DNA of 8,335 bases from Legionellaceae bacterium (GTDB lineage Bacteria > Pseudomonadota > Gammaproteobacteria > Legionellales > Legionellaceae). The notes under the pieces are model-generated. The model was given only the letters and a program-made list of their open reading frames with translations, ran no database searches and had not been told where the DNA came from. A program made the translations under genes and the position numbers. The stretch lies in NCBI GenBank assembly GCA_947474165.1, contig CANJHO010000121.1, positions 1 to 8,335 of the forward strand. Reading direction: 5' to 3'. Numbering within the stretch: position 1 is the first letter of the stretch; each line of letters begins with the position of its first letter. Below are positions 1-8,335 of this stretch, one piece after another.

Positions 1-2
1 AC

Positions 3-977
3 TACGATGCCTTGCAGCAGTACTACGATGACCGTGAAGCCAAGTATGGCTTGGCGCTATCCAATAGCAATCGCAAAACCCAAAATGCCGCATTTAATAG
101 AGTTTTTGATGAGGCTATTGTTCGGGGCTACTTGACTGAGAGTAATCGCCCCAAGCTAGATGGCAAGACTAAAGAGAGTGTGCGTCGTCCAGCATTTGAA
201 TTACATGAACTAAGAGCTTTATTAAAGCTACTGGGCCCATACATAGAATCAGGTCGAACTCGGGATGTACGTGAGCGTCGTGAAATCCTACGAGACTATG
301 TTGAGATGTTAGTTGATACAGGTGCAAGACCCGGTGCGGAACTATTAAATATGAAATGGAAGCAAATCCGTTTCATGATGAATCCCATTAGTACGGTGAC
401 AGATCAATTGGATGAAGATGGTGAAGTCATTGAAGTTCATAGCTTGAATCGTAGTTGTGAGATGACGGTTAAAGGCAAGACTGGGCAAAGGCAAATCATT
501 GGACGCTTACCAAGTGTCAGAGTCTTGGAGCGAATAGCCATGCGTAACTATGGAGTGGCTAGCTCAATTAAGGACCCATTGGCTGAACTAATTAAACCTA
601 CCAATGATGACTACATCTTTAGAACCATGGAAGGCCGGGATTTAAGTGATGTACTTAATCATATGTTTGACGGCTTCTTAGCGGACCATGGTTTATTAAT
701 AGATCCCAAGACTAATCAAAAGCGGGTGTTCTATAGTCTGCGTCATACTTATGCCACATTAGCGCTTACTCACGATATGGTGCCTATTCATACGCTAGCT
801 AAGCAGATGGGTACTAGCGTCTTGATGATTGAGAGGCACTATAGCCATTTACAAGTAATACAGGCTATTGAGCAATTACGCGGAACTAATACAAGAAAGC
901 TTATAGAAGCGGATAGTAAGGCAGCGGACAACTACCCGAGCAAGAAGCGGGCTCAGCAGGAGCTGCGGGCTGCTTGA
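3..977 (+). CDS. Tyrosine recombinase / phage-type integrase, C-terminal part (5' end off window)
   Basis: The frame is open to the window edge: codons at 3-11 contain no stop, and the TTG at 12 is only the first possible start in the track. Catalytic-domain motifs appear in order: VDTGARPGAEL (Arg I), FYSLRHTYATLAL (box II Arg-His) and LMIERHYSHL (nucleophile Tyr). Stop TGA at 975-977. Confidence 0.9.
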   Translation, partial: YDALQQYYDDREAKYGLALSNSNRKTQNAAFNRVFDEAIVRGYLTESNRPKLDGKTKESVRRPAFELHELRALLKLLGPYIESGRTRDVRERREILRDYVEMLVDTGARPGAELLNMKWKQIRFMMNPISTVTDQLDEDGEVIEVHSLNRSCEMTVKGKTGQRQIIGRLPSVRVLERIAMRNYGVASSIKDPLAELIKPTNDDYIFRTMEGRDLSDVLNHMFDGFLADHGLLIDPKTNQKRVFYSLRHTYATLALTHDMVPIHTLAKQMGTSVLMIERHYSHLQVIQAIEQLRGTNTRKLIEADSKAADNYPSKKRAQQELRAA

Positions 978-1086
978 AGCGCAAAGGCTATTTAAAGTAG
1001 CACTTATCTATCCAAAGCCTTCTGCAAATAGGGATCATCAGCCCTTCGAGTTGGTAGCCACTGTTTATAGTCGCTAGGCACATTTG

Positions 1087-1257
1087 CTAGCTGACGCTAT
1101 TTGTTGTTGCCAATTGCTGCTGCCCCGTTTTAATCTTCTGCCTAGCTCGCTCAGCTTTGACAGCCTCTTGATCTCGCTTAACGCGATCCCGCATGGATTT
1201 AAGTCTAGCTTGCTCGGGGCTTAAGGGTTTTATCGGAGCGATTTCATCGAATCTCAT
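1087..1257 (-). CDS. Possible 56-aa basic coiled-coil-like micro-protein (MRFDEIAPIKPLSPEQARLKSMRDRVKRDQEAVKAERARQKIKTGQQQLATTNSVS)
   Basis: Hand-translated; not in the ORF track because it is below the size cutoff. The ATG at 1257 lies 2 nt after the stop of the upstream micro-ORF (TAA 1260-1262), which suggests coupling. Only a weak GGGT SD-like sequence is present. No family recognised. Confidence 0.3.
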   Translation of the reverse strand: MRFDEIAPIKPLSPEQARLKSMRDRVKRDQEAVKAERARQKIKTGQQQLATTNSVS

Positions 1258-1259
1258 AG

Positions 1260-1406
1260 TTACCCAATCTGTAATGGTTGATGCGGCACGTTACTAGAGC
1301 CAAAAATCGCCTTGAATAGTGCATATGCTTGAGCTTGATTTTGAGCATAGAGAATCGTTTCCACCCACATCCCTGCCGCATTTACTGTCGTTTTGTATCG
1401 TTTCAT
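1260..1406 (-). CDS. Possible 48-aa micro-protein (MKRYKTTVNAAGMWVETILYAQNQAQAYALFKAIFGSSNVPHQPLQIG)
   Basis: Hand-translated from the minus strand. It has a protein-like composition and the same orientation as the 150-aa gene upstream. No clear SD precedes ATG 1406. Confidence 0.3.
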   Translation of the reverse strand: MKRYKTTVNAAGMWVETILYAQNQAQAYALFKAIFGSSNVPHQPLQIG

Positions 1407-1438
1407 GTAGATATTTAGCTTTTCTTATCAAGCTTTTG

Positions 1439-1473
1439 CAATGCAAGCGTTACTTAAAGTAATGCTTGCATTG
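1439..1473. repeat. 35-bp near-perfect palindrome CAATGCAAGCGTTACTT-A-AAGTAATGCTTGCATTG
   Basis: Outer 10-bp arms are perfect (CAATGCAAGC / GCTTGCATTG). The inner arms pair with one G.T position. It sits 4 nt downstream of the stop (1478-1480) of the minus-strand 150-aa gene. No U-run follows it on the minus-strand transcript, so it is not a canonical intrinsic terminator. Confidence 0.85.
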
Positions 1474-1477
1474 ATAT

Positions 1478-1930
1478 CTACTTGTTTTTATTGAAATTCA
1501 TTTTTAGTGCGCCACTAGCCACCTCAATGGCTGCATCCAAATTGCCACCTTCAGTTTCTGACTTGAGTAATTCCAGTGCCACTATTAAGTCAGTCATATT
1601 TGTCACGCAGATCGATGTTTTGCCAGGAACAATTTCGATACGCTTGCTACCGTAAAACACTGATAAACATAAGGCGCCATCAACTGCCATAAACCACCAG
1701 GGCTTGATGCGCTTAGGACGTTCAATGCTTTTATAGTTTCCTTCTACATCTTTAACCGTAACCCTGCGTTTCACAACAAAGTGGGTATGTTCTATTTGGC
1801 TCCTAGCTAATTGGATCTGCTCCCAAAGTTTATTGCTTAGCTTATTACGTCTTTGCTGTACTGCCGGCATAGATCTTGGTCGTACAGCATCGACAAATTG
1901 CAGATTACTTAAAGCATTTGGTGTGCCCAT
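1478..1930 (-). CDS. Hypothetical protein, 150 aa
   Basis: Track ORF. A GGAGA SD lies 5 nt upstream of ATG 1930 (minus-strand sequence GGAGAACACCATG). The composition is protein-like, with basic RRNKLSNKLWEQ and KRIKPWWF segments. From memory it resembles DUF-type hypotheticals found on proteobacterial islands, but I cannot verify that here. Confidence 0.75.
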   Translation of the reverse strand: MGTPNALSNLQFVDAVRPRSMPAVQQRRNKLSNKLWEQIQLARSQIEHTHFVVKRRVTVKDVEGNYKSIERPKRIKPWWFMAVDGALCLSVFYGSKRIEIVPGKTSICVTNMTDLIVALELLKSETEGGNLDAAIEVASGALKMNFNKNK

Positions 1931-2156
1931 GGTGTTCTCCTTACAAAAGTGGGGTACACAAGCAATGTATGGCTGACCAAGGGTTTAGGGCGACCTCTAT
2001 TTGGTGTTCTGTGAAATTCAGAGCATTTTGGACAGAAAAAATGCGGTCTTTCTTATCAAGAGATAAATATTTTTGTGAGTTGCTCGGTTGCGACAGAGTG
2101 GGTTACAAAGGTAAGGGAAAAACGTTACTAGCTGAGTAAGTGGTAGCTAATGGAGT

Positions 2157-2171
2157 TAAGTGAGTCACTTA
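2157..2171. promoter_or_regulatory. 15-bp palindrome TAAGTGA-G-TCACTTA, an operator candidate in the leader of the 153-aa gene
   Basis: Perfect 7-bp arms. A related half-site, TCACTAAGT, recurs at 2239-2247. The palindrome lies 165 bp upstream of ATG 2336. Confidence 0.3.
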
Positions 2172-2335
2172 GTGGCAAATGAATAACTCTGACTAGCAAC
2201 ACAAAAGCACTTCTCTCTAATGAGAGAAGCAACTAATCACTAAGTAACGATCTTTTGAGATCTCTTCTTCTAGTAACTAACGTAGAAACTAAAACCAAGC
2301 GACTTGCAACATCACTCATCTAAAAGGAGATAAAA

Positions 2336-2797
2336 ATGAGAGAAATTGCAGTCAGAATGTTTATTAATGAAAAATTTGCTGGAAGCTATGGAAATATGGT
2401 GTTTAATCGCGCTGCTTATAACGGCTCAATCGAACTACATAACCCTATGCAAAAGTATTTAGTGGATTTTTATAGCTACATCCATTGGGAAAACCGTGCT
2501 CAGACACAAGAGCAAATAGATATCGTCAATGAGCTGATTAATACAGACTTACCTAAAGCGCCCAATATCCTGATGTCATGGATACTGCATTGGGATAGGG
2601 ATGCAAAGATTAAACAAACAGTGCCGGGATTCTGTGCGTATTTGCCAGATAGCGGGGAAATGCATTTGCGTATTGGCGATGAGCAGCGGGGGACAAAAGG
2701 GAGTTGGGACTTGTCAGTGCGCCACTGCAAAAACGCAGGGCCAAAGCTTCCCGTGTTTATTGCTACTAATGTGGATTTAACAGTTTGGCAACAATAG
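2336..2797 (+). CDS. Hypothetical protein, 153 aa
   Basis: Track ORF. A strong SD (AAAGGAGA) lies 6 nt before the ATG, and a clean terminator follows 31 nt after the stop. No family recognised. Confidence 0.8.
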   Translation: MREIAVRMFINEKFAGSYGNMVFNRAAYNGSIELHNPMQKYLVDFYSYIHWENRAQTQEQIDIVNELINTDLPKAPNILMSWILHWDRDAKIKQTVPGFCAYLPDSGEMHLRIGDEQRGTKGSWDLSVRHCKNAGPKLPVFIATNVDLTVWQQ

Positions 2798-2818
2798 CGA
2801 ATACATAAAATTGTTAAG

Positions 2819-2966
2819 AAACCCCTCAAAAAAGCCTGCTGAACGCGGGCTTTTTGCATTCTTAAGCATGGTTAGCTGAGATTGCATAAACGCAGTACAG
2901 CGTGGATTTGAGGTGTTTTTAGTGGTGTGTCAAAAACCCACAGTATTTGCATATAAACCCCTCAAA
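2819..2966. repeat. Three clustered copies of the 12-mer AAACCCCTCAAA (two direct, one inverted)
   Basis: Exact copies at 2819-2830 and 2955-2966. An inverted 11/12 copy, TTTGAGGTGTTT, lies at 2907-2918. All are in the non-coding region upstream of the short recombinase gene. Confidence 0.6.
2828..2855 (+). terminator. Rho-independent terminator, bidirectional-looking
   Basis: A-run 2828-2833, stem GCCTGC (2834-2839), loop TGAAC, stem GCGGGC (2845-2850, one G.U pair), T-run 2851-2855. Confidence 0.8.
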
Positions 2967-3075
2967 TTCTTAGTCAATTTGTTGTCTAGATCTCACATAA
3001 AACAGCTAAATATTAAGCGTAGTGTGCATATAAGAAAAATATGCTTTTCTTTTGTGAATGATGCAAGTCGTTGAT

Positions 3076-3095
3076 TCTTGGAAGATCTTGGAAGT
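3076..3095. repeat. Tandem decamer TCTTGGAAGA / TCTTGGAAGT
   Basis: Two adjacent 10-bp units with 9/10 identity and one helical turn of phasing. They lie 143 bp upstream of the recombinase ATG. Confidence 0.6.
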
Positions 3096-3237
3096 CCATG
3101 GTTTCGCTAAGAATCATTGGGTAAAGATGACAAATCATAAGAATTCAACTAAATCTCTTGGCAAATAGAGGTCGACCATTAGCCCATAAGAAAACAAACT
3201 ACATACATGTTTTTTATTAACTACAAAGGAAAAATAG

Positions 3238-3804
3238 ATGGCACAAGCTAAAACATTGACACCTCAAGAGCTAGATAAAGTATTGGCATACGTAGCTACA
3301 AAGAAGTACCCTGAGCGCGATAGAGCGTTGATATTGACTAGTTGCTACTCAGGTCTTCGTGTTGCTGAAATCGCCAGCTTAAAAATGCGCGATGTAGTTA
3401 ATGAAGACGGCACGATTCGCAATGAAGTACGTTTAAGCGCAGCGCAGACTAAGGGTGGACAACCTAGAACGGTATTTTTACCTAAGAAATTACAAGATGA
3501 ATTGGCGATTTATTTGGCTACTCGCTATGCCAAGTTTCCGGATGTGCCATTCTTCCATACCGCTAAAAGACTAGGATTCTCAGCGAACTCTTTATGCCAA
3601 TGGTTTTTTTGGGCTTATCGCAATGCTGGAATCGCTGGAGCTTCAAGTCATAGTGGTCGCAGAACCTTTATTACAACACTGGCAAACAAAGGTATCTCCG
3701 TAAGGGTGCTGGCTGGATTGGCGGGACATAAATCTATTGCTGTAACTCAGAAATATATCGACGTCAATCCAGATCTCATGCGTAATGCAGTGGAGTTGAT
3801 CTGA
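3238..3804 (+). CDS. Short (188 aa) catalytic-domain-only tyrosine recombinase, FimB/FimE size class
   Basis: Track ORF with an AAGGA SD upstream. Motifs: YSGLRVAEIASL (Arg I), SSHSGRRTFITTLA (His-x-x-Arg), LAGHKSIAVTQKYI (His ... Tyr nucleophile). There is no room for an N-terminal core-binding domain. Confidence 0.88.
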   Translation: MAQAKTLTPQELDKVLAYVATKKYPERDRALILTSCYSGLRVAEIASLKMRDVVNEDGTIRNEVRLSAAQTKGGQPRTVFLPKKLQDELAIYLATRYAKFPDVPFFHTAKRLGFSANSLCQWFFWAYRNAGIAGASSHSGRRTFITTLANKGISVRVLAGLAGHKSIAVTQKYIDVNPDLMRNAVELI

Positions 3805-3825
3805 TAACCATTATTATGAGAAGTA

Positions 3826-4794
3826 CTAATCAGGACTTTTTTTCAAAAAAGAAAAATCATCATAATGATATTTTGCTTCTATACCTGGCCTAAGCATTTC
3901 GGCAATTTGTAAATATCCGTCTACATAATCATCGGCTTGAACCTCAACTATTCTTGCACCTAAATCAGATAACATGGTTCTGATGCATTGTTGACTAACT
4001 GATTTAATCTTATTTGGCAATTCAATTGAGTAATAACTAATCCCACCAATATTAGATGGATGCTGTGCTTGTAAGCTAGCTTTTTCAGAAATTAACCACC
4101 ATAAGATAATTTCAGAGAAGTCTAAACCAAGGCCTATGATGTGAATCTGATCTTTAAGAAATACGTCTACCCATGAGTAAAGTTCACAATTTTTCTCAAA
4201 GTTAAAGTTTGGTTTTTTACCCATTAGCGGTGAGCGGACAGGTTCATTCATGTGCGCAAACTGGATTCCTTTATAAAGATAGTCCTTCACTTGCCCCATA
4301 TACTTTGCATACTGGTTATACCCCAGCAACATAGAGCTAGGTTTTTCAACGTCACCATGTATTTTCCAAAAAACTTTCTTACCATCCGTCTTCGCTCTAA
4401 ATAGTGAGTGATATTTTTCTGATACTTTTTGAAATTTAGGTGTGAATGGGTGTTTATAGCCAACGCCGCCATCTACTGAGCGGTTGTAGTTAGTTGTAAG
4501 TATATTTCTTGCTAATCCACTATAGATATCAGTTAAACGATTTGCTAAGCCACTTTTTGACAGAAGTTGCGCGACATCTTTTATTAATTCATTAGGATCT
4601 TTTCCATCCCTAATTAGTTGCAGCCTAATTTTCTCAAATACTAAAGGTAATGGTTTCTGGTTTAGGTCATAGACTGGTACCGAGAATCGTTCTGATAATT
4701 TATTTAAAATATCCTCCCACGATAAGCCACCAAAAGTTGGTTCTAAAGAGCGTGTGATTCCATTGCCAAGTAAAACTGTATTTTTAATAGCCAT
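3826..4794 (-). CDS. SIR2-like (SIR2_2 / ThsA-type) protein, 322 aa, putative NAD+ glycohydrolase effector
   Basis: Track ORF with an AAGGA SD 6 nt before ATG 4794. Ordered motifs: VLLGNGITRS..LSWEDIL, ILTTNYN (Asn102, codon 4489-4491), WKIHGD (His146, codon 4357-4359) and IHIIGLGLDFSEIILWW. No additional domain is apparent. Confidence 0.8.
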   Translation of the reverse strand: MAIKNTVLLGNGITRSLEPTFGGLSWEDILNKLSERFSVPVYDLNQKPLPLVFEKIRLQLIRDGKDPNELIKDVAQLLSKSGLANRLTDIYSGLARNILTTNYNRSVDGGVGYKHPFTPKFQKVSEKYHSLFRAKTDGKKVFWKIHGDVEKPSSMLLGYNQYAKYMGQVKDYLYKGIQFAHMNEPVRSPLMGKKPNFNFEKNCELYSWVDVFLKDQIHIIGLGLDFSEIILWWLISEKASLQAQHPSNIGGISYYSIELPNKIKSVSQQCIRTMLSDLGARIVEVQADDYVDGYLQIAEMLRPGIEAKYHYDDFSFLKKSPD

Positions 4795-4819
4795 TTCTTA
4801 TCCTTAACTTTAATAACAC

Positions 4820-5551
4820 TTATTCAATTGATGGGAACTTCAGTCTTGCCGCGTTGTAAACCAGTCTCTCCGCCTGCTCTTTATATCTACTGGCAGCCAT
4901 TTGACGTCTTTGCTTCTCTTGCTCTGCGCTATTAGATTCTTGAACTTTTCTACCAAGGTGGATTTCAGCTAGTTTCGCTCTTTGCGCTAGTTGATAGAGC
5001 TGAATATCAGGGTTGCGGTAAAGGATTTCTGCAACGTCTACTAGGATTGGGATGGTTTTATGTTGTAGCTTAGTAGTTTCGAGTTGGACTAAAGCAGTAC
5101 TTTGAGCCCTCACGTCCAAGTTCTTGCCATCATGATGTTCGTCTAAGAGCTTGTTAATTTGCTCAAGTATGGTCACTCGTCGTAAATTCAATGGAATGTC
5201 GAGAATTAAGAAATTTTTTGGTTCGACTTCTAATTTATTTAAAACTTCAGCCTGGTCAATTGCGCGAACTTTAGAGTATTGATGCCGCTCGCTAAAAATG
5301 CGCTTACCGATATTTCCCCACCATTGTGCCCACGAGACATTTACATCTCCGAATAAGGCATAGGTATCTGCAAGAGCGTGGTTTTTACCGCCTTTTGAAC
5401 AACATTCTAGGTATTCATTGCTGGCATTAAGACAGCGCCACCATTCGTAGTACAGCGTATCTTTGGCTTTGCGCCAATCATCTACTGTTGAACGACCTTT
5501 GCGAAGTCCGCCGGGAATCTCTTTATAGAGCCCCAATTTTTCATCTGACAT
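4820..5551 (-). CDS. Unknown 243-aa protein, upstream operon partner of the SIR2-like gene
   Basis: Track ORF, 25 nt upstream of the SIR2-like gene and co-directional with it. Trp-rich N-terminal half (DDWRKAKDTLYYEWWRCLNASNEY, SWAQWWGNIGKR) and a charged helical C-terminal tail (EQEKQRRQMAASRYKEQAERL). Weak SD (AGG). No family confidently recognised. Confidence 0.75.
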   Translation of the reverse strand: MSDEKLGLYKEIPGGLRKGRSTVDDWRKAKDTLYYEWWRCLNASNEYLECCSKGGKNHALADTYALFGDVNVSWAQWWGNIGKRIFSERHQYSKVRAIDQAEVLNKLEVEPKNFLILDIPLNLRRVTILEQINKLLDEHHDGKNLDVRAQSTALVQLETTKLQHKTIPILVDVAEILYRNPDIQLYQLAQRAKLAEIHLGRKVQESNSAEQEKQRRQMAASRYKEQAERLVYNAARLKFPSIE

Positions 5552-5646
5552 ATGAGCCTATATTTAAATGACGCACTAAAAATAGATATGAAAAGTATAA
5601 GCACAATTCTTATCTACTTTGATTAGCGTTTACCCCTTAATGGGAC

Positions 5647-5686
5647 ATTAACAAAACTGACATAAATCAACTGTTCATCCGAAAAA
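5647..5686 (+). promoter_or_regulatory. Partial (first 40 bp) copy of the conserved array element, in the divergent intergenic region
   Basis: ATTAACAAAACTGACATAAATCAACTGTTCATCCGAAAAA matches about 31/40 positions of 6650-6689. The internal spacing is identical: TTCATCCGAAAA begins 27 nt after ATTAAC in both. Confidence 0.6.
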
Positions 5687-5745
5687 GACCCCTATTTTTA
5701 TAGACTCATATAGCGAAATAACTCGCATAACAATGGAGAAACAAG

Positions 5746-6588
5746 ATGAAAAAGAATGGAAAGTTATTAGTAGAGCAAGTGTTATCAGAAGGGGATTTAC
5801 TGGCACAGCAGCAAGTTGATTTTTACGATAACTACATTGTGAAAGCAAACGACGTTTTATATGGGCTATTGGCTGATTTAATGCGATATAGCGATCAGGT
5901 TCTGGGGTCTGACTATAAGCTAGAAATTCTATCCAAAATGCGCAGTACTTTATCAACCAAGCACCATATCAAAGTTCAAAAAAATACCCCAGATCTGACC
6001 ATTATTGTGAAATATGTAGTGCGCACTAATCGTAAAAATGCGCACGTTTATGCCAGAGTGCTTGATATGGCTTATAGACAGGATGTAATGGCTGATGAGC
6101 TAGAAGATTTCATACGCCAAAACGGAGGAATTGACCGTATTCGCGAAAGTAATGTGAATTTAGAAGGCGTACAAAAGCGCAAAAGTGAAGATGAGGGTAG
6201 GACAAAGCTTGTGAAAGCACTTTTAAACATAAAAGCTGAAACGCCTATGGCTGAGTTTAGGATTCCAGGCGAATGGACCAGTCAAGTACATGATTCGCAT
6301 GGTGTTGGCTCATTTCTATATCCCATTTGCGCCAAAGTTGATGGAATTTACAAAGTAGTAGGGATTGTTCCTATGGATTATGAGTTTGAGGAGCAAATTC
6401 TTAAACGGGTAATAGTGGACATTGGCAGCAAAGGGAGTTATTCAGAAATTGAAAAACAGCAATTTGCAAAAGCAAAAGAGATGATTTCGCCTGCTTATCA
6501 ACTCAAGATACAAGAGGAGCGCGATAGGGTTGATGAACAACGTCGAGCCAAAAAGCTGACTCTCCAGCCGCTACCAATGGCTGCATGA
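5746..6588 (+). CDS. Hypothetical protein, 280 aa, first gene of the plus-strand array
   Basis: Track ORF with a GGAGA SD 6 nt upstream of the ATG. Charged C-terminal region (EERDRVDEQRRAKK); the protein ends ...PLPMAA. No family recognised. Confidence 0.8.
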   Translation: MKKNGKLLVEQVLSEGDLLAQQQVDFYDNYIVKANDVLYGLLADLMRYSDQVLGSDYKLEILSKMRSTLSTKHHIKVQKNTPDLTIIVKYVVRTNRKNAHVYARVLDMAYRQDVMADELEDFIRQNGGIDRIRESNVNLEGVQKRKSEDEGRTKLVKALLNIKAETPMAEFRIPGEWTSQVHDSHGVGSFLYPICAKVDGIYKVVGIVPMDYEFEEQILKRVIVDIGSKGSYSEIEKQQFAKAKEMISPAYQLKIQEERDRVDEQRRAKKLTLQPLPMAA

Positions 6589-6612
6589 AACAAGTGTTAC
6601 TTGCAGTAACGG

Positions 6613-6634
6613 TGCCACCTTCGGGTGGCATTTT
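6613..6634 (+). terminator. Rho-independent terminator TGCCACC-TTCG-GGTGGCA-TTTT (copy 1 of 3)
   Basis: Perfect 7-bp stem, UUCG tetraloop and T-run, starting 24 nt after stop 6588. The same 22-mer occurs at 7183 and 7738. Confidence 0.9.
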
Positions 6635-6649
6635 CGTTAAAAGCTATCG

Positions 6650-6720
6650 ATTAACAAACTTGATTCGAATTGATTGTTCATCCGAAAAACAGGTCAAAAC
6701 GCCTATCTTACGTATATGGG
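6650..6720 (+). promoter_or_regulatory. Conserved 71-bp upstream element (copy 1), candidate promoter/operator/leader
   Basis: Starts exactly 37 nt after the terminator start and ends in TATCTTACGTATATGGG. Aligns without indels to 7220-7290 (about 59/71) and 7775-7845 (about 64/71). Confidence 0.7.
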
Positions 6721-6758
6721 TTACCGCACTTGGTGGCTCTCAACTAAAGGAGAATTAA

Positions 6759-7175
6759 ATGAGTAATAAATCTTATGTAATTGCAGTCAATATGATTCCT
6801 TATGGCATCAAGATGGTAGTTAAATCTACGACAGATTTTGTAGATGCGATTGTTAATGAATTTGAGAGGTTGGTAAATAGTGATCATGAAAAAGCCGATG
6901 GTTACCACTTAGTGCTTAAAGCAAAGCTGTTACGTGAAGATGCATTTTTTAATAAACATCCTAAGGCAGCGCACGTTCAGAAAGAAAGATGGGGTAAGTT
7001 TTGCGATCTTTGCGTTGATTTTGCCGCTCTTAATACGGTTTTATACAAAGAGCCGATATATCTAGTGCATCCGGAGCAATTTGATGAGCAGCGTGCTCGC
7101 GGCTTATTGGATCTGTCGTCTGCTGGAGGGGTAGATCTGATTCCAGAGGTTCCTGTAATGCGATTAGCAGCTTAG
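6759..7175 (+). CDS. Hypothetical protein, 138 aa
   Basis: Track ORF with an AAGGAGA SD 5 nt upstream. It is followed 7 nt later by a terminator copy. The protein ends ...VMRLAA. Confidence 0.8.
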   Translation: MSNKSYVIAVNMIPYGIKMVVKSTTDFVDAIVNEFERLVNSDHEKADGYHLVLKAKLLREDAFFNKHPKAAHVQKERWGKFCDLCVDFAALNTVLYKEPIYLVHPEQFDEQRARGLLDLSSAGGVDLIPEVPVMRLAA

Positions 7176-7182
7176 TAATAGA

Positions 7183-7204
7183 TGCCACCTTCGGGTGGCA
7201 TTTT
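7183..7204 (+). terminator. Rho-independent terminator, identical copy 2
   Basis: TGCCACCTTCGGGTGGCATTTT, starting 7 nt after stop 7175. Confidence 0.9.
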
Positions 7205-7219
7205 CTATCGGTTTCGGCA

Positions 7220-7290
7220 ATTAACAGAGTTGATTTGAATTAGTTATTCATCCGAAAAGTAGGTCGAAACGAATATCTTACATATATGGG
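7220..7290 (+). promoter_or_regulatory. Conserved 71-bp upstream element (copy 2)
   Basis: Has the same 37-nt offset from the terminator start and the same length, and ends in TATCTTACATATATGGG. Confidence 0.7.
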
Positions 7291-7331
7291 CTGTCGCTCT
7301 TGAGAGCCTTAATTAAATAGGAGAAGTTGAA

Positions 7332-7730
7332 ATGAGCATTGAGAAAATGTTGTCTATTAGCCTGGCAAATCTTGATGTAGATTGCACTATCGAGGTTCCA
7401 GTAGATATGTTCTTTGAGCTGCTTGAAAACACACCAGATTTGGTTGGGCGGTTTGGTTTTGAGAGTTCTATGAGTCAGTGGCTTGAAATGCTGTCTATGG
7501 TTAAGGCTGAATATAAAGAAGTTGGAAATTGTGATTGGTCCAAAGCTAATGCCGATGAAGAAGTTTTCTTAAGACGCTGTCAAATCGTTGTGGCTCTTGG
7601 GGCGCATTTGAAAGATATTCCCTTAATGTTATCCGGAAAAGGTTTGGTAGATTTTATTGAGGATATGGGCGGCATAGAGGTCACCGAACAGGTTTTGAAT
7701 GGCTCTCTACCCATAGAAAACTTTGCTTAA
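7332..7730 (+). CDS. Hypothetical strongly acidic protein, 132 aa
   Basis: Track ORF with an AGGAGA SD 7 nt upstream. By my count it has about 23 Asp/Glu against 9 Lys/Arg. Confidence 0.8.
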   Translation: MSIEKMLSISLANLDVDCTIEVPVDMFFELLENTPDLVGRFGFESSMSQWLEMLSMVKAEYKEVGNCDWSKANADEEVFLRRCQIVVALGAHLKDIPLMLSGKGLVDFIEDMGGIEVTEQVLNGSLPIENFA

Positions 7731-7737
7731 GTTTTAG

Positions 7738-7760
7738 TGCCACCTTCGGGTGGCATTTTT
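7738..7760 (+). terminator. Rho-independent terminator, identical copy 3
   Basis: TGCCACCTTCGGGTGGCATTTTT, starting 7 nt after stop 7730. Confidence 0.9.
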
Positions 7761-7774
7761 GTTTATATCTATTG

Positions 7775-7845
7775 ATTAACAAACTCGATTTGAATTGATT
7801 GTTTACCCGAAAAGTAGGTCAAAACGCCTATCTTAGGTATATGGG
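7775..7845 (+). promoter_or_regulatory. Conserved 71-bp upstream element (copy 3)
   Basis: Has the same 37-nt offset and ends in TATCTTAGGTATATGGG. Confidence 0.7.
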
Positions 7846-7885
7846 TTATCAATCTTGATGGCCTTCAATAAAAAAGGAGAAATGC

Positions 7886-8335
7886 ATGTGTAATTGCAAA
7901 CATACGGCAGCAGACTTTAAATTAGCAAGTGAAGCACCATTTAACTCCACTCTTATAGAGGTGGATTCTGAGTGGATGGAAATTGGATTGCAAGATGTTG
8001 AATATATGGAAGAGAATTTCCCAGATACCTTCTCAATTCCGGAAAAGGAGATTCGTGAGTCAATCCCCGTGGGAATGATGGCTAAGGTGATTGTTGATTG
8101 GGGAATTGAGGATGTTCCAAATGAGCGATTTTGGTTTGAGGTCACTTCATCGCAAGTAGATGATGTGGGCAACTTGGCGTACTTTGGAGTTTTGCGTAAT
8201 GACACCATTGTTGCCCCTTGGGGTGCAATGATGGGCCCTATCTACGCCTGGAATATCTGTGATGTTGATGCAGAGGAGTACTTTAATCGAAATACAGTTG
8301 GATGTTCCTGTGATCGGTGTCAGCAGATCGAATTA
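7886..8335 (+). CDS. Hypothetical acidic Cys-containing protein, N-terminal 150 aa (3' end off window)
   Basis: Hand-translated: MCNCKHTAADFKLASEAPFNSTLIEVDSEWMEIGLQDVEYMEENFPDTFSIPEKEIRESIPVGMMAKVIVDWGIEDVPNERFWFEVTSSQVDDVGNLAYFGVLRNDTIVAPWGAMMGPIYAWNICDVDAEEYFNRNTVGCSCDRCQQIEL... The frame is open for 150 codons to the window end. A GGAGA SD lies 5 nt upstream, at the same module position as for the other array genes. It is absent from the track only because no stop is reached. Confidence 0.8.
   Translation, partial: MCNCKHTAADFKLASEAPFNSTLIEVDSEWMEIGLQDVEYMEENFPDTFSIPEKEIRESIPVGMMAKVIVDWGIEDVPNERFWFEVTSSQVDDVGNLAYFGVLRNDTIVAPWGAMMGPIYAWNICDVDAEEYFNRNTVGCSCDRCQQIEL

Follow-up and report, generated by a model that had tools for sequence, protein, structure and literature searches.

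A predicted NAD-degrading SIR2 protein is encoded by exchangeable cargo, not by half of a two-gene system, on a small integrase island of Polynucleobacter

The abortive-infection protein AbiH of Lactococcus lactis (PF14253) consists of a single SIR2-like domain of ~300-350 amino acids (aa) and is borne on mobile elements; it has been placed in the 'SIRim' branch together with ThsA, DSR2 and FAM118 (bioRxiv 10.1101/2024.09.18.613514) and is predicted to deplete NAD in the manner of a sirtuin (PMC13064643). Here we describe a gene for a 322-aa protein of comparable architecture, which lies in a stretch of 8,335 nucleotides (nt) deposited as part of a Legionellaceae bacterium assembly (GCA_947474165.1, contig CANJHO010000121.1, positions 1 to 8,335); this whole stretch is referred to as the window. 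An earlier note, made from the letters of the window, had proposed that the SIR2-like gene and the gene of a 243-aa protein (p243) directly upstream of it form an undescribed two-gene defence system. The SIR2 gene is instead exchangeable cargo of a mobile island, and p243 is a backbone gene of that island and not the partner of the SIR2 protein. The reading that we prefer, with a probability of roughly 0.68, is that the 322-aa protein acts as a stand-alone, AbiH-like abortive-infection effector which is carried as such cargo.

The 322-aa protein is a genuine defence-type SIR2 that is predicted to degrade NAD, and the SIR2 identity given to it earlier is confirmed by profile comparison. Its match to Pfam SIR2_2 (PF13289) scores 30.9 bits (cut-off 24.5), and the same domain is matched by 23 of the 27 family members. 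In the 27-sequence alignment (25-83% identity) the residues G10-N11-G12, T101-N102-Y103 and H146-G147 are invariant. The motifs which had been picked out by eye are located at residues 8 (LLGNGITRS), 25 (SWEDIL), 98 (ILTTNYN, containing Asn102), 143 (WKIHGD, containing His146) and 217 (IHIIGLGLDFSE), with 44 aa between Asn102 and His146. The best match of the family profile among the sequences of solved structures is the SIR2 domain of ThsA (6LHX, E 4e-10); the profile alignment pairs N102 with TTNYD, H146 with HG and G10-N11-G12 with GAG of ThsA. The N102 column is occupied by Ala in ThsA entry 8BTO (TTAYD), as opposed to TTNYD in 6LHX. We take 8BTO to be an N112A mutant and the N102 column to correspond to the catalytic Asn112 of ThsA; the counterpart of His146 is H152.

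The SIR2 fold fills the entire protein, as had been suggested, and the AlphaFold model has a pLDDT of 88 and a pTM of 0.89. All 14 Foldseek matches of this model below E 0.001 in the Protein Data Bank (PDB) are antiphage SIR2 NADases (KomC, DSR2, SPARSA, Avs5), the top ones with E values of 9e-8 to 9e-5 and a probability of 1.00; the canonical sirtuin SIRT2 ranks 15th (E 7.6e-3). A housekeeping, CobB-like sirtuin was considered and rejected: since it has just two Cys, the protein lacks the zinc module of sirtuins, its distribution is patchy, its gene is mobile and its structural neighbours are defence proteins. Members of the family are found in Proteobacteria, Bacteroidota, Firmicutes, Chloroflexi and one archaeon; among the viral sequences of IMG/VR they are present on three contigs only. 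From sequence and predicted structure, we infer NADase activity and a role in phage defence for the 322-aa protein.

Concerning the closest described systems, the window protein has the architecture of AbiH (322 aa, a single domain, island cargo, no conserved neighbour in 80 loci). Membership of the AbiH family itself was rejected. The window protein has no match to it at E<=1; weak matches are given by three of the 27 family members and by a translated genome locus (L103), with relatives scoring 19.1-27.5 bits against 30.9. As these scores are below the threshold, the window SIR2 is assigned to a separate SIR2_2 subfamily. ThsA of type I Thoeris (6LHX, 8BTO) shares with it the GxG loop and the Asn and His columns, but the SLOG/STALD domain of ThsA is missing from the window protein, and the PADLOC match to ThsA covers model positions 72-177 of 478. 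Since there is no SLOG/STALD domain, and no match to ThsB/TIR among the open reading frames (ORFs) of the window, activation by cyclic ADP-ribose is not expected. The top structural matches are KomC (Kongming), DSR2, the SIR2-APAZ protein of SPARSA and Avs5, which need a KomB partner, a C-terminal sensor, a short pAgo and a STAND NTPase, respectively; all of these are missing here. Neither the SIR2 protein nor any of the nine window ORFs scanned contains HerA, a large C-terminal sensor, pAgo/APAZ, STAND or KomA/KomB, and the profile scans of the window ORFs likewise bear out the earlier statement that TIR, HerA, Argonaute, SLOG and STAND components are absent.

A further stand-alone SIR2 protein, a vertebrate member of the antiphage SIR2 branch, is FAM118B/SIRanc, which is eukaryotic and distant and is matched by the family profile with E 3e-5. 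In PMC12700824 it is described as forming head-to-tail filaments and processing NAD. FAM118B offers a possible model for partner-free activation. Stand-alone SIR2 proteins such as AbiH and FAM118B are already known in the SIR2_2/'SIRim' group; the less ordinary features belong to the island, and these are a slot between overlapping stop codons, several alternative slots and a repeat-delimited array on the other arm.

The window belongs to a small island of Polynucleobacter sinensis that has a tyrosine integrase and a length of at least 9 kb. p243 is 100% identical to a hypothetical protein of this species, and the entire gene order of the window is also found on contig LOJJ01000004 (GCA_001595985.1) and on several metagenome contigs. 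The otherwise identical gene block borders differing host genes across contigs; in locus L002 the block held in common, counted from the integrase to its last gene, is ~9 kb long. Loci containing p243 were gathered from metagenomes and genomes, and all window proteins were mapped onto them.

The SIR2 gene occupies a slot between the convergent genes of p243 and of a small recombinase (Table 1). No cargo is present in the slot of at least five distinct islands (L010, L011, L012, L032 and L046), in which p243 and the recombinase stand tail to tail with overlapping stop codons (TTAA; L010:10729-10732). Other islands have different cargo at this position: an oppositely oriented 255-aa Sel1-repeat gene (L014 and L017), an unrelated 258-aa gene without assigned function, p258 (L024 and L031), a 238-aa gene downstream of p243 on the same strand (L131) and, in one locus of a distant relative, a five-gene mix including H-NS and a helix-turn-helix (HTH) regulator. 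The cargo junctions coincide with the flanking stop codons, and all cargo seen is inserted exactly between both. Nucleotide homology of the window to the empty island L010 ends at the p243 stop codon and restarts at the 3' end of the recombinase gene; homology to L015, which has a 37%-identical SIR2 allele, ends 35 nt inside the SIR2 gene. The composition changes as well: the SIR2 gene has a GC content of 35.5% and a GC3 of 29.1%, both the lowest among the window genes, against 42.8% GC for p243, as the earlier hand count had indicated, and 40.5% for the window.

The SIR2 alleles of this slot are 37-100% identical to that of the window, while the neighbouring p243 proteins are 72-92% and the recombinases 95-99% identical; such extreme allelic divergence within conserved flanks fits a putative arms-race gene. 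The junction AAGGATAAGAAATG of the spacer is common to slot alleles of 37-100% identity and is missing for the SIR2 genes in other slots; the spacer and the putative ribosome-binding site belong to the slot, not to the SIR2 cassette. This site, an AAGGA on the minus strand 6 nt ahead of the SIR2 ATG, was found together with the two minus-strand ORFs and the 25-nt gap where the earlier note had placed them. An integron-like cassette system was considered and rejected, as there are no attC-like or direct repeats and the junctions are the flanking stop codons; beyond short chance matches, no direct or inverted repeats bracket positions 3805-4819.

SIR2 genes are also found elsewhere in sister islands. 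In L137-L140 (59%-identical alleles) and in L051 the SIR2 gene comes after DUF6641 and small ORFs, ~2.6-2.7 kb past the end of p243, and directly follows an ORF of the 56-aa type; the p243/recombinase slot of these islands is empty. In L137-L140 this position is on the integrase side, and the contig of L051 stops before any integrase. In the window, nothing is inserted between the stop codon of the integrase and the 56-aa ORF, which are ~109 nt apart (978-1086). The neighbours of the SIR2 gene in L135 are two genes for DNA methylases and one for an HNH protein. In P. sphagniphilus MWH-Weng1-1 (L050:6001-6967) an 83%-identical SIR2 gene is frameshifted near codon 80 and has intact neighbours, p243 (89% identical) and the recombinase (99% identical); this split gene is either a pseudogene or an assembly error.

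The arrangement in the window, with p243 and SIR2 co-directional, 25 nt apart and without a terminator between them, is what a dedicated two-component system would look like, in which p243 would be the sensor or regulator and SIR2 the NADase effector. A SIR2-family gene directly follows p243 in 24 of the 52 informative p243 loci, many of the loci being redundant metagenome contigs and the counts therefore not independent samples. In addition, the close relatives of the SIR2 protein (>=~38% identity) with enough context (L051, L135 and L137-L140) are all found in islands that encode p243 or a homologue of it, and p243 is missing only from the more distant SIR2 members (24-35% identity). The last of these points weighs against the stand-alone reading: because the close relatives are all in p243-bearing islands, a dependence on p243 acting in trans is possible within the clade. 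Against a dedicated pair, however, there is no adjacent SIR2 gene in 28 of the 52 loci, which include empty slots and non-SIR2 cargo, and the p243 relatives of 23-26% identity never have SIR2 in the slot. Co-variation is not seen either, since 37%-identical SIR2 alleles stand beside 90%-identical p243 proteins, and SIR2 identities of 37-96% go with p243 identities of 90-92%. The sister islands with SIR2 in other slots have it in other transcription units, and p243 is intact beside the frameshifted gene of MWH-Weng1-1.

The same picture is obtained starting from the SIR2 family. One genome per species was scanned and 80 SIR2-family loci in other species were kept; p243 is adjacent in three of them, nearby but non-adjacent in one, and not present in the other 76. 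No neighbour recurs across these 80 loci beyond clade-level synteny. We regard a dedicated p243-SIR2 defence system as very improbable. The genomic association on which it was to rest is largely missing outside one island family, and within that family it is positional and not specific.

A different way to keep p243 in a functional role would be a modular system, in which it serves as the conserved sensor or adaptor for any downstream effector. Lamassu and CBASS have a conserved core of this kind that is paired with swappable effectors. The unrelated same-strand genes directly downstream of p243 (the SIR2 alleles, p258 and the 238-aa gene of L131) would agree with such a module, but the slot is empty beside an intact and conserved p243 in the islands listed above, the Sel1 gene has the opposite orientation, and one slot holds the five-gene mix with H-NS and the HTH regulator. 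Moreover, it is the small recombinase and not any effector that invariably accompanies p243, and p243 has no sensor or NTPase domain recognisable by profile or Foldseek searches. We give this modular arrangement very little credence.

p243 has no credible match in Pfam, NCBIfam, PHROGs or PADLOC; its profile reaches a best E of 0.29 against PDB sequences, and Foldseek searches of its AlphaFold model (pLDDT 71) in the PDB and BFVD give no match below E 1. The earlier statement that the protein fits no family is upheld by these searches. A PADLOC match to Csn2 (E 1.9e-4, 19 bits) was taken as chance because there is no CRISPR context. An exhaustive HMMER search (E<=1e-3) collected 659 clusters at 50% identity, all unannotated. 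A viral origin was considered and rejected, p243 itself having no match in IMG/VR. The two motifs that had been quoted from the protein are located at residues 24 and 73. The proposed likeness of its Trp-rich N-terminus to island-borne regulators survives as a weak echo only: when 20 distant relatives were scanned with Pfam and NCBIfam, the only matches were sub-threshold ones to PF20109, which two of the relatives reach through a WWWE(C/F)LRRN motif (Trans_reg_dom, 20 bits, cut-off 23.8). PF20109 is the N-terminal domain of proteobacterial regulators (Pfam). Within the W-rich N-terminal segment (residues 34-58), C40, C50 and C51 are invariant among close relatives and H58 is near-invariant; these residues might form a metal site.

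The gene order around p243 is conserved over long distances. In six inspectable relatives (23-26% identity) the p243-like gene is separated by none to several variable genes from a convergent small tyrosine recombinase of 185-231 aa, and this order is also present in L135, where the p243-like protein is 35% identical. Wherever the contig of a distant relative reaches far enough, a DUF6641 gene is found beyond the recombinase (L129, L131, L135 and L144); no literature was found on DUF6641. Because the recombinase is kept beside p243 in all relatives inspected, it is the constant companion of p243. The recombinase is 95-100% identical across Polynucleobacter-type islands, where p243 ranges from 64 to 100%. 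A separate observation is that the recombinase is unusually conserved between variable regions, p243, p153 and p280 diverging to 59-72% (L010-L032). With low confidence we propose a DNA-binding role of p243 in island regulation or recombination.

The defence-island context suggested earlier was confirmed, as the window belongs to a mobile island whose sister islands have defence cargo. This cargo includes, in other slots, AbiEi/AbiEii (L011:4182-6014), a BsaWI-type restriction-modification pair and a RelA/SpoT protein (L129:3753-5949 and 12281-13309), of which the latter matches the PADLOC candidate PDC-S33 (E 5.5e-117), two DNA methylases with HNH (L135:2765-5973) and a DEDDh exonuclease (L137:8027-8683); Eco57I with T5orf172 is present as well. 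The assertion that the gene pair sits between two recombinase genes proved wrong, because both recombinase genes (3238-3804 and 1-977) lie on the same, low-coordinate side of it; on the high-coordinate side beyond p243, solely genes without assigned function are found. Distant islands adjoin tRNA-Met or tRNA-Thr genes (L129:15545-15621, L131:14680-14755, L133:2867-2943), and in L129 and L133 the tRNA gene is found next to the large integrase, an indication that integration is targeted to tRNA genes. There are no tRNA genes in the window or in the close Polynucleobacter loci fetched, and the window has no Rfam matches.

Hotspots of this kind are known from other small integrative elements, which have in common with the window island a conserved backbone and slots with interchangeable defence genes. 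P4-like satellite and P2 prophage hotspots and GMT islands have backbone slots with exchangeable defence genes. What sets the window island apart is its backbone, in which the main slot is bounded by the overlapping stop codons of p243 and of a catalytic-domain-only recombinase. Membership of the GMT islands was rejected (20.5 bits for the GmtY model, cut-off 340, and 13.5 bits for the GmtZ model, cut-off 600), and no alpA/intY arrangement was seen in the window. Variable defence cargo is also described for tmRNA-associated islands (PMC12595487), whose backbone differs from that of the window island.

According to the mechanism that we propose for the preferred reading, the SIR2 gene, which would have no promoter of its own, sits between the stop codons of p243 and the recombinase and would reuse the ribosome-binding site of the slot. 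Transcription probably starts in the promoter region of p243 (5552-5745) and reads through into the SIR2 gene; insertion in the slot together with such read-through would make the two genes an operon in the transcriptional sense only. The protein would work alone, with the GNG NAD loop, Asn102 and His146 forming the core that hydrolyses NAD+ once activated. The cue would come from the phage; the protein may be switched on by binding one of the phage components directly and/or by assembling itself into active oligomers or filaments, and these are the most likely switches given that there is neither a sensor domain nor a conserved partner. Filament assembly is documented for ThsA, Avs5 and FAM118B, and the title of a PDB entry refers to a helical KomBC assembly. 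Loss of NAD+ would then halt phage replication, and alleles would be swapped between islands by recombination in the conserved flanks.

Further points count against parts of this scheme. Sigma-70 promoter-like and terminator-like sites in 3600-5800 do not exceed shuffle expectation, so that read-through from p243 is offered tentatively and co-transcription of p243 and SIR2 is plausible only. PADLOC has no dedicated model for the protein and gave only partial matches to the SIR2 domains of ThsA, LmuA and PDC-S25; the argument for a defence role is therefore one of homology and context. Thirdly, Asn takes the place of the catalytic His (W-x-I-N-G) in 13 of the 99 family ORFs compared, all of a single Polynucleobacter-island clade (L015, L016, L018-L021, L026-L030, L051 and L053). 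The His-bearing L025 is 72% identical to the Asn-bearing L027, so the change arose within the clade, and the Asn102 column is retained in 98 of 98 family ORFs. The existence of 13 intact His-to-Asn alleles makes it less certain that NAD hydrolysis is the selected activity; the window allele has His146, so the NADase prediction for it stands. This natural change is the same substitution as the engineered H146N of PDB entry 9xvc.

The His-to-Asn alleles would also agree with a SIR2 protein that is not antiphage at all, being either an addiction toxin which stabilises the island or an NAD-dependent modifier (ADP-ribosylation or deacylation). An addiction role would suit a gene carried by a mobile element, and the mechanism of AbiH is itself stated to be unknown (PMC13064643). 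On the other hand, the closest structures are all NAD-depleting defence effectors, canonical sirtuins are far worse matches and the zinc module is missing; no antitoxin-like neighbour is conserved across the SIR2 family, and hypervariable alleles in a hotspot that also has AbiE, restriction-modification and PDC-S33 cargo are what is typically seen for defence genes. A function outside phage defence is thus judged unlikely.

The features of the window are presented in Table 1. The small recombinase matches Pfam Phage_integrase with 2.5e-22 over residues 6-177. The large integrase fragment, whose reading frame is open to base 3, has a weak match to the same domain (7e-05, 23.1 bits, under the cut-off of 27.1) and a PHROG integrase match of 3.7e-24; in L010, a 450-aa gene shares 97% identity with this fragment over the C-terminal part.

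Table 1. Position, strand and basis of assignment of the window features
Feature	Position	Strand	Basis or remark
Large tyrosine integrase, C-terminal 321 aa of ~450 aa	1-977	plus	PHROG integrase; cut at window edge
DUF6641 backbone gene	1478-1930	minus	Pfam DUF6641 5.8e-09
Small tyrosine recombinase, 188 aa, catalytic domain only	3238-3804	plus	Pfam Phage_integrase; convergent with p243
Cargo segment, ~1,015 bp, between the stop codons of p243 and the small recombinase	3805-4819	unstranded	Homology breakpoints and GC drop
SIR2-like gene, 322 aa, predicted NAD+ glycohydrolase effector	3826-4794	minus	Pfam SIR2_2, ThsA profile match, AlphaFold, Foldseek
Spacer, 25 nt, with putative ribosome-binding site AAGGA (4801-4805)	4795-4819	minus	Slot property, not SIR2 cassette
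p243, 243-aa island backbone gene	4820-5551	minus	Mostly helical, Trp-rich; no family match
Divergent intergenic region between p243 (minus) and a 280-aa backbone gene (plus)	5552-5745	unstranded	Likely p243-SIR2 promoter, from gene arrangement

The other arm of the island has a 137-nt direct repeat in three copies (window 6612-6748, 7182-7318 and 7737-7873), which are 72-85% identical and ~560 nt apart. Copies 1 and 2 each lie just upstream of an ORF of ~135 aa, and no gene was identified within the window after copy 3. Each repeat starts with a terminator-like hairpin (GTGCCACCTTCGGGTGGCATTTT) and contains another hairpin, and an AAGGAG site is located near its end; a listed 57-aa ORF (6585-6758) is probably the repeat read as protein. 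With a copy number of 1-4 across sister islands, the repeat looks like the boundary of a cassette array.

A more far-reaching idea is that p243 and the truncated recombinase form a module that captures or exchanges promoter-less genes precisely between convergent, overlapping stop codons, with p243 as the missing DNA-binding partner of the recombinase and the cassettes delimited by the 137-nt terminator/leader repeats as a second array on the other arm. We consider it unlikely; if true, freshwater Betaproteobacteria would harbour a multi-slot cargo-capture island of a new kind.

With a real two-gene system, the antiphage catalogue would have gained a further SIR2 architecture. As p243 belongs to the island backbone, the locus holds a candidate for defence by a single gene instead of a new system of two, and in a mobile element tight spacing to a conserved neighbour is not evidence of a functional pair. 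The subject that remains is a phylogenetically wide subfamily of stand-alone SIR2 proteins of ~240-330 aa, near but outside AbiH, which raises the question of how an SIR2 NADase with neither sensor nor partner stays off and then switches on. With the natural His-to-Asn alleles, variants are at hand for testing whether NAD hydrolysis is needed. Finally, compact islands in streamlined freshwater bacteria (Polynucleobacter, Limnohabitans) which swap SIR2 alleles, AbiE, restriction-modification and further genes in defined slots are a useful natural system for the turnover of defence genes.

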